Made by a program: the position numbers and the translations under genes. Under the pieces are notes generated by a model. That model worked only from the letters and a program-made list of their open reading frames with translations, was not told where the DNA came from and searched no databases. Shown one piece after another: positions 8,681 through 13,184 of a stretch of 64,000 nucleotides of DNA. Numbering within the stretch: the first letter of the stretch is position 1; every line of letters starts with the position of its first letter. Origin of the DNA: Candidatus Hodarchaeaceae archaeon (GTDB lineage: Archaea; Hadarchaeota; Hadarchaeia; Hadarchaeales; Hadarchaeaceae); contig JASEGJ010000003.1 of assembly GCA_030018135.1 (NCBI GenBank), positions 7,633 to 71,632 on the forward strand, given 5' to 3'.

Positions 8681-9796
8681 TCAGTAAACCTTTTCCACAA
8701 GTTTCTTTGCCTTAGCTTCGGTGCTCTTCCGCTTGGCCTGATGCGCCTTTAAGAACTTCGTCATAAGTTCGATCGCCCGCAACTTGCAATCGCCGCAAAT
8801 TATCGCCCCAGATTTGCATGCCTCCCGCAAATCCAAGAGTTTTTCGTCATTTGGCATGAGGTGATAAACGTAAAGTTTGTATACCGTGCATTTATCGGGG
8901 TCCCCTCCAAGGTTGCGTTGTTCATCGGCCGTCGGCTGTCCGCCCGTAAATGCATCCCTAATTTTTCTTTCCACTTGCTCGGGGCTATCAGTCAGAAATA
9001 TTGCCGTCTCCGGCTTGCTGCTCGACATTTTCTCGCCAGTCAGACCGGGCATGAGGCGGTGATAAGTTGAGGACGGCAGGATAAATCCGAATTCACGTTG
9101 GAACCTTGCTGCGACATCGCGAGCAAGCCTTATGTGTGGGTCTTGGTCGACCCCAACTGGCACAACGGTCGGACAAGGGCCCTCAAATTCGCGTAATTGT
9201 GGATGCAAGATATCTGCTACATCCACCATTGGATAAAATATGTGCGCAATGTTCGAGTTCCCGGCGAAGCCATAAATTGCGCGCGTTTCGCTGAAGTTCA
9301 CCTTTTTCGCCAGCATATACGCCAAGTGGCGCACGGCGTCGCTACGCGACTGAAAGTATACGTTGCACTTGTCGAGGTTTAGGCCAAGCGCCAGATAATT
9401 CGTGAGGTACTCATCAACAGCAAGCCGGCGGGCTTCTTCAAACGGCACATCGCGTGCAGAATATGCCTCGAGATCGGCGACACAAAGGTAAATATTTGCG
9501 CCCCGTTCCTGATACCAGATCAGCTGATCGATGACTAATTTGTGGCCGATATGCATTCGACCGCTGGGCATGAGGCCCGTCATCACGACGAACTTCTTGT
9601 GGGCAAACATCGCATCCAGTACGCGGCCAAAGTCGCGGTGACCAAAGATCACGCGGCGGCGCATAAGATGGTGTGGTTTGGGCATGCGATCGAGCAAACT
9701 CTCAAATGGCTCTATCCCGAACTCCTCCATCAATTTGGCGTAGTCCTTAGGTATGGCTGCACTCCAGGGGTCGATTCTGATTGGCATGCATTTCAC
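8681..9796 (-). CDS. trpS: Tryptophanyl-tRNA synthetase, archaeal type, with C-terminal 4-Cys cluster motif
   Basis: Class I motifs HIGH (GRMHIGH) and KMSSS. C-terminal C-x23-C-x6-C-x2-C. Overlaps the endA stop by 4 nt. Confidence 0.8.
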   Translation of the reverse strand: MKCMPIRIDPWSAAIPKDYAKLMEEFGIEPFESLLDRMPKPHHLMRRRVIFGHRDFGRVLDAMFAHKKFVVMTGLMPSGRMHIGHKLVIDQLIWYQERGANIYLCVADLEAYSARDVPFEEARRLAVDEYLTNYLALGLNLDKCNVYFQSRSDAVRHLAYMLAKKVNFSETRAIYGFAGNSNIAHIFYPMVDVADILHPQLREFEGPCPTVVPVGVDQDPHIRLARDVAARFQREFGFILPSSTYHRLMPGLTGEKMSSSKPETAIFLTDSPEQVERKIRDAFTGGQPTADEQRNLGGDPDKCTVYKLYVYHLMPNDEKLLDLREACKSGAIICGDCKLRAIELMTKFLKAHQAKRKSTEAKAKKLVEKVY

Positions 9797-10332
9797 GGCC
9801 TTTCGCGTTTTAGCGAATAGTAGGTAATATCTCCCTCGTCATCCACTATCGCAAATAACATGTCCTTGCGAACGCTGTGCGCCAATCGCACCGCGCGCGC
9901 GAGTTCGGTCGGCGTCAGTTTGGTGCCCTCCGGTACCGCATGGACTATATACTTTGAGTGCGTTTCGCCCGGCTTCTCACCGCGTTCGTAGACGCGAAAG
10001 TGTGCCCCAAACTTTAGCCCGGTCTTAACCACATAGCCGCGCGAGCGCATGTCCGCGTACACCAAGTACTTAAGCATCAAATCCGGATCGCGCTTTGTCA
10101 ACCTCGCTAGGAGCTCATCAAACCTGATTTGCTCGCCCATATCGTGGTCGATCACGTGGATTTTGCCACCCTCGAGGAGGTAGAGCGCCTCCAATGGTGC
10201 CAGCTGGAGCTTGCCGCCCGAAAGCGGCTTGCCAAAAGACCCCCGCTGGTAAAGTTGGTTTGCCTGAGCCTCGTCCCAAACCATTACCTTGTCCTTGTAC
10301 AGGTAAGCCTCGACAGGGATTTCGGCTTCCAT
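9793..10332 (-). CDS. endA: tRNA-splicing (tRNA-intron) endonuclease
   Basis: 179 aa. Catalytic region YLVYADMRSRGYVVKTGLKFGAHFRVYE and HSKYIVH (Tyr/His/Lys triad). Confidence 0.85.
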   Translation of the reverse strand: MEAEIPVEAYLYKDKVMVWDEAQANQLYQRGSFGKPLSGGKLQLAPLEALYLLEGGKIHVIDHDMGEQIRFDELLARLTKRDPDLMLKYLVYADMRSRGYVVKTGLKFGAHFRVYERGEKPGETHSKYIVHAVPEGTKLTPTELARAVRLAHSVRKDMLFAIVDDEGDITYYSLKRERP

Positions 10333-10413
10333 ACCGTCCCCTCTTACACTATCTAATGCATGTTAAGAAGTTTTTGATGCGAGACGCGGGTCAAGATTGG
10401 CCCCACTGTGCCC

Positions 10414-11871
10414 TCACTTGCTAGAGACCTGAGTTGGCGTCTCATTTTTTGTAGTTTTCTTCAACTCAAGCCAATACTTGAGATTGTGGATGCAGCCGGG
10501 GTCCGGAGCCTGTACATCGTCATAATACCCATATGCCCTCGCCCTGCAACCGCCGCAGGTGTAGCGATACTTGCATTCCCCGCAGCCCTTCAAAGCCTCC
10601 CTATCCCTAAGCTTCCATAGGAGCTCGGAGGAGTGCCAAACGTCCCGCAGGCGCACATCCCTTATGTTACCGAGCTTAATCGGCATGAACACGCAGGGGG
10701 TTATGTCTCCATTGGGCTCAAGTCCGCAGTAGAGCCTCCCGGCCCCACACCCGCCGAGGAAATCCGCGAGGCTCTTCGTTCGGCCCCGTAACGCCCTCAT
10801 CGCCCCCTCGCTCGTGAAATGAGTTGGAACTATGCTGCTCGCACCGTGTGCACCGTACGCGAACTCCAAGGAGATCATCGAATATTGCGGCGCAGTTGAA
10901 TAACAAATCATTTTGCAGTCACTGTCCACCATCTTGGTGTACAGGTAATTGAGCAGCTTGTGGCGCTCCTGCGGGCTTAGGTCTTGGTCGACGATGTCCT
11001 TGCCCCGCCCGACTGGCACGTAGTTGAACATGATAACGCGCTTCGCCCCAAGCTCTTGCTCGATGAAGTCGACAAGTTTTGGGATCTCTTGAAGGTTGGA
11101 GCGGGTTGCGGTCAGGGCGACACACGTGTCGATTCCCTCGCCGACGCTATTTTTGATCCCCTCGCACGTGAGCCTCCATGCCCCCGGGACCCCCCTGAAT
11201 CTATCGTGCACCTTCTCGAACCCGTCGAGGGATATCTCCACGTAATCGAAAACATTTTTCATCTTTTTTGCGACCTCCCTTGTGATCACCGTGCCGTTCG
11301 TAGCGACGGAGATGAAAAATCCCTTACTTTTAGCGTAACTCGCGATCTCGAAAATGTCATTCCTCAGCAACGGTTCGCCGCCGGAAAATGCTATCGCCAC
11401 AACGCCAGCGTCCTCGAACTCATCTATGACCCGCTTCGCCTCCTCGGTCGTGAGCTCATCCTTCATCGCCCCGGGTCCCGCGTTCTCATAGCAGTGCTCG
11501 CACCGCAGGTTGCAGTGCTTGGTGTAGTTCCAAACAACCAAGAAGGGGGCAATCGAGGTGAAAGGCCTGCGGGCGCCGTAATGGGCGACGCCTTCCAGCA
11601 CGTTTACCATGCCGCGCCGGATCACGGGGTCCTTCAAATTTTTCTTCAAGCTCTCGCCGGAGTAGCCGAGGGCGTTTGTTCCGCGATCGGCTATAAGCTT
11701 GACCACCAAAGCGGCGATTCTGTCCCGGAAGTCGCAGGGGATGTCCTCGCCCGCGTACCTTCTCAGGGCAACATCCAACCTGTTGCCGCCGTACTTGCTC
11801 CTCCCGCAGACAAACCTGAGCAGAGCCTTGGAGAAGGGGTTCCCCAGCCACCTCTGCACCGCCCCTGTCAC
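10414..11871 (-). CDS. Radical SAM enzyme with C-terminal SPASM-like Cys-rich domain and ~115-aa N-terminal extension
   Basis: CNLRCEHC (CxxxCxxC). C-terminal cysteine clusters (CGAGRLYCG ... CGECKYRYTCGGCRARA) typical of SPASM/twitch maturases. Confidence 0.75.
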   Translation of the reverse strand: MTGAVQRWLGNPFSKALLRFVCGRSKYGGNRLDVALRRYAGEDIPCDFRDRIAALVVKLIADRGTNALGYSGESLKKNLKDPVIRRGMVNVLEGVAHYGARRPFTSIAPFLVVWNYTKHCNLRCEHCYENAGPGAMKDELTTEEAKRVIDEFEDAGVVAIAFSGGEPLLRNDIFEIASYAKSKGFFISVATNGTVITREVAKKMKNVFDYVEISLDGFEKVHDRFRGVPGAWRLTCEGIKNSVGEGIDTCVALTATRSNLQEIPKLVDFIEQELGAKRVIMFNYVPVGRGKDIVDQDLSPQERHKLLNYLYTKMVDSDCKMICYSTAPQYSMISLEFAYGAHGASSIVPTHFTSEGAMRALRGRTKSLADFLGGCGAGRLYCGLEPNGDITPCVFMPIKLGNIRDVRLRDVWHSSELLWKLRDREALKGCGECKYRYTCGGCRARAYGYYDDVQAPDPGCIHNLKYWLELKKTTKNETPTQVSSK

Positions 11872-12113
11872 CGCTTCCTCCCTTCTAACCGTGATCCCAC
11901 CCCTTTCGCTCAGACGTTGGGGGCACCTCCGCTACCTGCGAAAATCCCCTTTTCAACCCCTTAATTGTAACGTTTAAATAATCGTCCAAATAATATATTA
12001 ACTCGAGGATAGCGTCGATAATCGCACTAATACCGGGCGGTCGGCCGAGACGATGACGAGAGCTTAAAGCTGAGGCAATAAGCTCTTTTTAGCCAATGAA
12101 GTGTCACCTCCAG

Positions 12114-13184
12114 CTAAGTCAGTGTGGCTGCCCGCCTGGGTATTATGACATCTCCGACTATTGGTATTCTATTCCCGCAGCTCGGGCATCTACAGTCATC
12201 TAGCCGGACCTCGACTAGTTTCAGTCCGTAGCGTTTGAGGAGCAACCTACCGCAACTCGGGCAATATGTGTTCTCGTAGCGATGTCCCGGCACATTACCT
12301 ACGTATACGTACACCAAGCCTTCTGACATGGCTATGTCATGGGCCAGCTCGAGGGTCGCGATCGGTGTAGGCGGGGCATTGAACTTGTAGGCGGGGGAAT
12401 AGGCGGTGAAGTGCAAGGGCGTCTCGCTGCCCGCCTCGCGCAGGTGGCGCCTCGCGAGCTCCCGCAACTGGTCCTCGCGGTCGTTGACGCCGGGGATGAC
12501 GAGGTTCACGACCTCGACGTGTAGCCCCAGCCACTTGGCCTCGCGCACGTTTCGCCAAACTAGCTCGACATCGGTGCCGCAGTACTTGCGCACGGCCTCC
12601 GCATTCCCCTTGACATCGATATTTATCGCATCTAAGCCAGCGTCGCGAAGCATCCGAAGCGCCTCGAGGGTCATAAAGCCATTTGTGACGAATGTATTGC
12701 GGTAGCCCGCTTTTTTAGCCAGCTTGAACATATCCAACGACCATTCGAATAGAAGAGTCGGCTCGTTAAACGAAACGCTCGTGGACTGACACCCGTACCC
12801 CTTAACCAGTTCCACGAATCTTTCTGGAGTAACGTATTCGCTTCTCGTGGGGTCGGGTGGAAATTTGCTGATGTGCCAATTTTGGCACCATTTGCATTCG
12901 AAATTGCAACTCCAGCTCCCAATCGTCAGTGAATCGCTTCCCGGCCAGAAGTGGTAAAATGGCTTCTTCTCGATGGGGTTTGCCGAAATCCCACTCGAGA
13001 GCCCATACTGCAGGGTGTAAAGTTCCCCTTCCTGATTCTGCCTTGTTTTACAAAAGCCTGATTTGCCCGGCGGGATAACGCAACGCCTTTCGCAGGTATT
13101 GCACTCCACCACATTTCCGCCCACCTTGTCGTAAAGCAAAGCTTTTCTGACCCACGGCTGCTTTAGATTCAAAGTTGCACCCAT
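12114..13184 (-). CDS. AmmeMemoRadiSam-system radical SAM enzyme (PflA-like activase family)
   Basis: N-terminal Cys cluster CNTCERRC...GFCKTR, IEKKPFYHFWPGS, and radical SAM motif CNFECKWCQNW. Matches the family signature. Confidence 0.75.
   Translation of the reverse strand: MGATLNLKQPWVRKALLYDKVGGNVVECNTCERRCVIPPGKSGFCKTRQNQEGELYTLQYGLSSGISANPIEKKPFYHFWPGSDSLTIGSWSCNFECKWCQNWHISKFPPDPTRSEYVTPERFVELVKGYGCQSTSVSFNEPTLLFEWSLDMFKLAKKAGYRNTFVTNGFMTLEALRMLRDAGLDAINIDVKGNAEAVRKYCGTDVELVWRNVREAKWLGLHVEVVNLVIPGVNDREDQLRELARRHLREAGSETPLHFTAYSPAYKFNAPPTPIATLELAHDIAMSEGLVYVYVGNVPGHRYENTYCPSCGRLLLKRYGLKLVEVRLDDCRCPSCGNRIPIVGDVIIPRRAATLT

Follow-up and report, generated by a model that had tools for sequence, protein, structure and literature searches.

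We describe a pair of adjacent genes on the minus strand of contig JASEGJ010000003.1 from Candidatus Hodarchaeaceae archaeon, a deep-subsurface member of the Hadarchaeota. The analyzed stretch is 64 kb long and is referred to below as the window; the rest of the genome lies outside it. The upstream gene, endA, encodes a subunit of the tRNA splicing endonuclease, and the downstream gene, trpS, encodes a tryptophanyl-tRNA synthetase (TrpRS) with four cysteines that are the predicted ligands of a [4Fe-4S] cluster. We consider it very probable that the pair is a Hadarchaeota two-gene unit, endA followed by a trpS of the iron-sulfur (Fe-S) type, and that this is an old conserved linkage that once also included an intron-containing tRNA-Trp gene. 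The features of the gene pair are the following, with lengths in amino acids (aa) and with cysteine and motif residues numbered in the 371-aa open reading frame (ORF) that starts at the GTG:

9793 to 10332, minus strand: endA, 179 aa, alpha-type tRNA splicing endonuclease subunit, stop codon TGA at 9793-9795
8681 to 9787, minus strand: trpS, 368 aa from the likely ATG start at 9787, archaeal-type TrpRS
8681 to 9796, minus strand: longest ORF of trpS, 371 aa, GTG start at 9796
9785 to 9798, minus strand: endA/trpS junction CCGTGAAATGCATG, with the TGA that ends endA, a GTG in frame and overlapping this stop, an ATG out of frame, and the ATG in frame at 9787
9542 to 9553, minus strand: HIGH, the class I synthetase signature, residues 82-85
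9017 to 9031, minus strand: KMSSS at residues 256-260, a variant form of KMSKS, in register with the KMSSS of 3A04
8786 to 8890, minus strand: four-cysteine motif C303-x23-C327-x6-C334-x2-C337 in the anticodon-binding domain, predicted [4Fe-4S] ligands

The ORF coordinates place endA directly upstream of trpS, head to tail on the same strand. An earlier note on this DNA, made from its letters alone, had located the two genes here, and both the ORF positions and the Pfam and NCBIfam matches confirm it. EndA consists of the domains tRNA_int_endo_N (PF02778, residues 7-75, E 2e-19) and tRNA_int_endo (PF01974, residues 86-171, E 3.5e-35), and it scores 134 bits against the NCBIfam endA model TIGR00324, for which the cut-off is 59.6. 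The catalytic triad Y115, H125 and K156 is present and aligned with FRLY-E, EHS and SVRK of the M. jannaschii enzyme 1A79 and also with 5X89. Catalytic roles of the Tyr, His and Lys residues of EndA are described in PMC5829648. The match to 1A79 extends from end to end (E 8e-36), and every defining sequence feature of an alpha-type EndA that we checked is present. The M. jannaschii EndA, an alpha4 homotetramer, is similar to the window protein in its length class, in the full-length alignment and in having the triad at identical positions. It differs in that the top PDB score of the window protein is obtained not with 1A79 but with the alpha unit of the M. kandleri (alpha-beta)2 enzyme 5X89. 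There is no second endA-like gene within the 64-kb window. The EndA of Hadesarchaea has been described as alpha4 with an additional L3 loop, in organisms with many disrupted tRNA genes (PMC5829648).

The trpS start is likely the ATG at 9787, leaving a spacer of 5 nucleotides (nt) after endA, because the N-termini of homologues, a public gene call and the comparison of junctions all point to it. Specifically, MPxxIDPW is the N-terminus of 120 of the 120 best TrpRS homologues, the public call on the identical contig L001 starts trpS 6 nt past the end of endA, and in 12 related loci an ATG lies between -1 and +1 nt from the endA stop, the junction taking the form TGA-N-ATG, TAAATG, or an overlapping TGATG or TAATG. 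A contig identical to this one occurs in sample SRR23186779. Relative to all these relatives, the window junction carries a tandem ATGC duplication (TGAAATGCATGCC against TGAAATGCC), which has placed an ATG out of frame 1 nt past the endA stop and has shifted the in-frame ATG 4 nt downstream. The earlier note had reported that the two genes overlap by 4 nt. A GTG start with such an overlap (GTGA) is possible, and endA and trpS abut whichever start is used, but the overlap is probably an artefact of ORF calling: the GTG merely defines the longest ORF, and it is disfavoured by both the homologue N-termini and the junction alignment.

The assignment of the downstream product as TrpRS follows from a match to Pfam tRNA-synt_1b (PF00579, E 1.6e-53) and from a score of 546 bits against the TrpRS equivalog NF008925 (cut-off 451), with the TyrRS models remaining far under their cut-offs. 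The closest solved TrpRS is the A. pernix structure 3A04 (E 1.4e-101, approximately 47% identity over 359 residues), and the match is decisive for the fold. The earlier note had pointed to a C-x23-C-x6-C-x2-C peptide as the possible cluster site and had proposed alignment with structurally characterised Fe-S enzymes. The peptide is present, translation puts its cysteines at 303, 327, 334 and 337, and in the HMMER alignment these fall without gaps on C303, C327, C334 and C337 of 3A04, with Gln293 aligned to Gln293. The four cysteines are also aligned without gaps to those of the P. horikoshii TrpRS 3JXE, and the human and yeast TrpRS have no cysteine in the four motif columns of the alignment.

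The cysteines are also retained in orthologues, a point on which the earlier note had made its reading depend. They are kept in 120 of the 120 best homologues, with the x23 spacing in 119 of them, and we conclude from this retention across homologous sequences that the motif is not a chance feature. The four residues are invariant in a ten-sequence alignment that reaches down to 56% identity. For a wider comparison, the TrpRS alignment was scanned over one genome per GTDB species and the best 80 loci were kept. The motif occurs in 62 of the 77 complete TrpRS genes of archaeal species genomes and, among the loci scanned, in all those of Hadarchaeota, Methanobacteriales and Methanococcales. The best named TrpRS matches (62-81% identity), as well as every genome locus at or above 64% identity, belong to Hadarchaeota/Hadesarchaea, followed by MSBL1 and Methanobacteriales. 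Two patterns of motif change were observed. In six TrpRS of Bathyarchaeia / Nitrososphaerota (L070, L071, L073, L075, L076 and L078) the first three cysteines are kept and the fourth is Asp or His (…LCGEDK / …LCGEHK). Asp and His are known to replace Cys ligands in other Fe-S proteins. In the DPANN TrpRS at L060, L063, L065, L068, L069, L072, L074, L079 and L080 all four cysteines are lost, as they are in eukaryotic TrpRS.

The comparison with enzymes of known structure supports the assignment of the window TrpRS to the known [4Fe-4S] subgroup, with a cluster predicted by strong homology. Every defining sequence feature of this subgroup that we checked is present, and the Fe-S reading proposed in the earlier note is borne out ligand for ligand against 3A04 and lies within the motif definition of Han et al. 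The first such TrpRS was reported in 2010 from T. maritima, with Cys236-x22-Cys259-x6-Cys266-x2-Cys269, and the general pattern C-x(21-24)-C-x6-C-x2-C is found in archaeal and bacterial TrpRS, mainly of thermophiles and other extremophiles (Han et al., PMC2954223). The one archaeal TrpRS structure with a cubane [4Fe-4S] cluster is 3A04, where C337 is named as a cluster ligand, Q293 and D309 are neighbours of the cluster, and Q293, at the surface, is proposed to recognise the 5' base of the anticodon (PMC4027196). The same Fe-S prediction has been made for other archaeal-type TrpRS (PMC5370408). The A. pernix K1 enzyme (3A04/3A05), solved with its cubane, shares with the window protein the length, the archaeal type, the cysteine spacing and Gln293; it differs in its crenarchaeal source and in Asp309 near the cluster, which is Tyr in the window protein. 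The T. maritima enzyme (TM0492, 2G36), the first Fe-S synthetase reported, likewise has its cysteine motif in the anticodon-binding domain. In contrast to the window protein it is bacterial-type and distant (E 3e-20), with x22 rather than x23 spacing, and its cluster is surrounded by Arg224 and His242 where the archaeal enzymes have Gln293. The P. horikoshii enzyme (3JXE, E 1.3e-69) aligns at all four cysteines but belongs to a different TrpRS subfamily. By analogy with 3A04, 2G36 and the modelling in PMC4027196 and PMC2954223, the predicted cluster would lie beside the C34 pocket of the anticodon-binding domain, where, according to the published structures and theory, it may act with the conserved Gln293 to rigidify this pocket, to contribute to its shape, or to do both.

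The order of the two genes is conserved well beyond the window. In every Hadarchaeota locus with enough flanking sequence, endA directly precedes trpS in the same orientation, at a distance of -1 to +5 nt. It also lies upstream of trpS, at larger gaps of 16-389 nt, in all Methanobacteriales loci (Methanobacterium, Methanobrevibacter and others) with more than 100 nt of upstream flank. Among the best 80 loci, no endA was found beside trpS in those of Sulfolobales, Desulfurococcales, Bathyarchaeia, Altiarchaeota, Aenigmatarchaeota, Woesearchaeota and Nanoarchaeota; none was found in the 5 kb upstream of trpS in the Methanothermococcus locus L030, nor upstream of trpS in five motif-bearing Sulfolobales, Desulfurococcales and Bathyarchaeia-like loci (the A. 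pernix locus is not among these five). Thus, the suggestion of the earlier note that the pairing recurs in archaea holds for Hadarchaeota, Methanobacteriales and H. volcanii, but the pairing is not universal, as the Methanothermococcus locus illustrates. The presence of the motif in Methanococcales, Sulfolobales and Altiarchaeota without an adjacent endA leads us to conclude that, judged by their distribution, the cysteine motif and the pairing with endA are independent. A tie between the Fe-S motif and endA adjacency was therefore ruled out as a candidate explanation; the motif is also present in a convergent paralogue of trpS. This paralogue, of Pyrococcus type, follows tRNA-Trp and endA in four contigs (L098 3380-4462, L103 6265-7335, L107 2162-3244 and L119 4150-5220), where it has 37-38% identity to the window trpS, carries C-x23-C-x6-C-x2-C and replaces the co-oriented gene. 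The arrangement looks like an in-place gene displacement that retained the linkage.

The pair has been published for H. volcanii, where endA and trpS1 (HVO_2952-HVO_2951) overlap by 4 nt and reverse transcription PCR detected a bicistronic RNA; additional trpS1 promoters lie inside endA, the trpS1 level is unchanged on endA knock-down, and the substrates of EndA include several tRNAs as well as rRNA (PMC7714728). As in the window, endA is upstream of trpS on one strand. The H. volcanii tRNA-Trp contains an intron, and this intron is a box C/D guide (PMC7714728). The differences are that the Haloferax EndA is of the fused alpha'2 type while the window EndA is a single 179-aa alpha subunit, and that the Haloferax tRNA-Trp gene is distant from endA (coordinates in PMC7714728).

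Upstream of endA the window contains one further conserved feature:

10333 to 10375, minus strand: conserved region upstream of endA, with box AAAAACTTCTTAACAT at 10360-10375 and purine-rich GAGGGGACGGT at 10333-10343 before the ATG

In more than 20 Hadarchaeota loci, endA is preceded by the corresponding pattern, an (A)GCAAnCTTCTTAA(C/T) box followed by GGGGACGG(C/T)ATG. The 10360-10375 box appears promoter-like and the 10333-10343 segment Shine-Dalgarno-like. On the evidence of the conserved box, endA-trpS is probably driven by a promoter of its own, independently of the radical SAM/SPASM gene (10414-11871) that precedes it. From the 5-nt spacing and this upstream box, we predict that endA and trpS are most likely transcribed together, starting from the box, in a single transcript; the tight spacing would then give coupled expression of the two genes.

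The third component of the linkage, tRNA-Trp, was observed in relatives and not in the window itself. No credible tRNA gene, for Trp or any other amino acid, was found in the 64-kb window by ARAGORN with and without intron mode, by an Rfam scan at gathering thresholds, by BLAST with the tRNA-Trp genes of relatives, or by three mismatch-tolerant patterns. Five low-threshold ARAGORN calls in the window were dismissed for their odd introns and lack of Rfam support. Three relatives carry, 0.3-1.7 kb ahead of endA and on its strand, a tRNA-Trp(CCA) gene whose 58-nt intron falls at position 37/38. These genes, identified by ARAGORN and by Rfam tRNA scores of 44-48 bits, are:

L002, 3594-3728: tRNA-Trp(CCA) with intron, same strand as endA
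L005, 4769-4903: tRNA-Trp(CCA) with intron, same strand as endA
L007, 932-1066: tRNA-Trp(CCA) with intron, same strand as endA

A pattern derived from the intron matched 44 metagenome contigs, 19 of which have endA downstream on the same strand (for example, L086, L087, L107 and L117). Taken together with six genome loci, these 19 contigs have an intron-containing tRNA-Trp upstream of endA on the same strand, with an intron of 57-59 nt. The earlier note had asked for an intron-containing tRNA-Trp elsewhere in the genome: such a gene exists in the closest relatives, where it stands beside endA-trpS, but the window has no tRNA-Trp at all. Because relatives carry tRNA-Trp upstream of endA, the ancestral Hadarchaeota order is, as reconstructed from these loci, tRNA-Trp, zero to two other genes, endA, and trpS; by the same comparison, the lineage of the window has evidently lost tRNA-Trp from the position upstream of endA.

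A bulge-helix-bulge (BHB), the motif that EndA cuts, can be drawn by hand at the canonical intron; the drawing is not a minimum-energy fold prediction. In it, the anticodon stem of 5 bp is followed by an AGA bulge, then by a helix with 3 bp and a single C-A mismatch, and finally by an AGU bulge and a GGCA/UGCU helix. Some of the genes contain a second insertion of approximately 31 nt in the T-arm (L003 1546-1716, L006 2548-2716, L008 3560-3730, and L108 about 626-795). It separates the T-stem from the T-loop, which is a non-canonical site, and genes of this kind are missed by ARAGORN and by the Rfam gathering thresholds; no BHB was identified for this second insertion in the Hadarchaeota tRNA-Trp genes. 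Such two-insertion genes occur even with an EndA made of one short alpha subunit, and they fit the many disrupted tRNA genes reported for Hadesarchaea (PMC5829648). The canonical intron (L002 3631-3690, and likewise in L003 and L108) resembles a box C/D guide, with weak, sub-threshold Rfam matches to sR3/sR40. It contains CUGA (D'), 7 nt, and AUGAUGA (C'), and its D' guide pairs with tRNA positions 35-43, placing position 39 at the fifth base. The second guide, UUGGAGC, complements bases 31-36; in some loci it is 3 nt too far from CUGA, and in others CUAG follows instead. A canonical box C/D guide is therefore only partly supported: there is no recognisable C box, and the D guide is shifted or the D box mutated.

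The linkage of the three genes can be summarized in the following proposed sequence of events. EndA, for which the fold and triad are observed, would excise BHB introns from pre-tRNAs including pre-tRNA-Trp, its substrates being those suggested by homology, and TrpRS would then charge the spliced tRNA-Trp. Originally in this lineage, the gene of the substrate tRNA, the splicing enzyme and the charging enzyme would thus have been neighbours. Several points weigh against this interpretation. With tRNA-Trp missing from the window, the case for an intron in the tRNA-Trp of this organism comes from relatives at approximately 80% TrpRS identity. Since every intron-containing tRNA is served by EndA, a Trp-specific functional link is not required. 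By analogy with the trpS1 promoters inside endA in H. volcanii, the operon could be leaky or dual. With respect to the cluster, the P. horikoshii TrpRS 3JXE shares the four cysteines yet crystallised without a cluster (PMC4027196), so the Fe-S assignment for the window protein is an argument from strong homology rather than a demonstration, and sequence alone cannot give physical evidence for a cluster.

Some of these points also bear on an alternative explanation, namely that the adjacency of endA and trpS is an inherited order without function, that the two genes are expressed independently, and that the link to the tRNA-Trp intron is coincidental. The H. volcanii trpS1, with promoters of its own within endA and no response to endA knock-down, is consistent with this alternative, as are the range of EndA substrates, which includes several tRNAs plus rRNA, the 16-389 nt gap in Methanobacteriales, and the lack of the pair in Methanococcales, Sulfolobales, Bathyarchaeia, Altiarchaeota and DPANN loci. 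However, the pair is retained in at least three distant orders, its spacing of -1 to +5 nt in Hadarchaeota leaves no space for an intergenic promoter, a tRNA-Trp gene is in the same neighbourhood at 25 loci, and the convergent Pyrococcus-type trpS still adjoins endA in four contigs. We consider a functionless inherited order unlikely, though it deserves to be kept in mind. Class I synthetases often contain Cys4 zinc sites, and the four cysteines could form such a site or be purely structural or disulfide-bonded, similar to T. maritima in spacing only; the cluster-free 3JXE crystal would agree with this, but we regard it as very improbable given that the nearest solved homologue, 3A04, holds its cubane on exactly these residues, that a C-x6-C-x2-C with a distant Cys is unlike the paired CxxC knuckles typical of zinc, that the empty site of 3JXE was ascribed by the authors of PMC4027196 to expression in E. 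coli BL21, a heterologous host that may lack the proper P. horikoshii machinery for cluster maturation and insertion, and that Asp or His replaces the fourth Cys in some Bathyarchaeia orthologues, which does not alone rule out zinc. The preferred interpretation remains the two-gene unit of endA and an Fe-S-type trpS with an ancestral link to tRNA-Trp.

Farther upstream, the window contains a conserved element that also occurs near tRNA-Trp in relatives:

12027 to 12146, minus strand: conserved non-coding element, approximately 120 nt long, upstream of endA; it may not belong to the operon

The element is 75-85% identical in more than 30 related loci, compared with approximately 72% for neighbouring coding DNA, and in relatives it lies approximately 35 nt downstream of the intron-containing tRNA-Trp and upstream of endA. 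It plausibly folds as a structured RNA. The fold modelled by RNAalifold has a 12-bp terminal stem (UAAUACC-GGCGG with CCGCC-GGUAUUA) and a 10-bp inner stem in which a Shine-Dalgarno-like GGAGGUG is paired with CAUCGUCUC. The G-U pairs fit the minus strand only, and 93% of the cells are paired, against 28-60% in controls with slid partners. Covariation amounts to few compensatory changes and does not exceed the shuffle controls, the sequences being too similar for a strong test. A small ORF was considered as an alternative, with a 23-codon frame ending in TATTAG that is open in some loci and broken in others by 1-2-nt indels; it was rejected because indels in the central hairpin break the frame in the window, L009 and L005. 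Box C/D, H/ACA, 5S rRNA and T-box-like RNA were likewise rejected or left unsupported: the element has no C box, no ACA box and no Rfam match, and its CUGA and UGGN bulge are not conserved. A short AACACCCC(T) motif occurs in several copies between the element and the endA box in relatives (L108 about 1150-1290; also L005, L007, L084 and L125); no copy was seen in the window, whose SPASM gene lies between the two.

A broader and quite improbable reading is that in Hadarchaeota the intron-containing tRNA-Trp gene, the ~120-nt RNA, EndA and the Fe-S TrpRS form one conserved neighbourhood for maturation and charging of tRNA-Trp, with the element as a new structured RNA. If this were true, the element would act either on processing or modification of pre-tRNA-Trp or on expression of endA-trpS, the cluster would read C34, whose 2'-O-methylation is guided by the tRNA-Trp intron in other archaea, and one tRNA would have its splicing, modification and charging genetically coupled.

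Both the archaeal TrpRS motif (PMC2954223) and the endA-trpS operon (PMC7714728) were published before, and the window is consequently an ordinary further example, adding a member from Hadarchaeota to the [4Fe-4S] TrpRS family and to the endA-trpS pairs. The tRNA-Trp/endA/trpS neighbourhood and the ~120-nt element, for which a non-exhaustive literature search found no published description, are small additions to the known picture. The candidate roles of the cluster across the family include structural support, base recognition and redox sensing, and the window sequence makes its role no more testable than the solved structures do. The comparative picture in this phylum, with the genes of tRNA-Trp, EndA and TrpRS as neighbours and a conserved, unannotated RNA-like element between them, could guide metatranscriptomics of how tRNA-Trp matures in uncultured archaea.

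On the minus strand, endA is preceded by two radical-SAM genes, at 10414-11871 and 12114-13112. The latter encodes 332 aa and has no counterpart in any of the related loci that were fetched; it occupies the position of tRNA-Trp in relatives, and in the window the last ~10 codons of its ORF run into the conserved element. The product of the former is a 485-aa radical SAM/SPASM protein, similar to AhbD/NirJ but under all NCBIfam cut-offs, that is common to several relatives at 47-73% identity.

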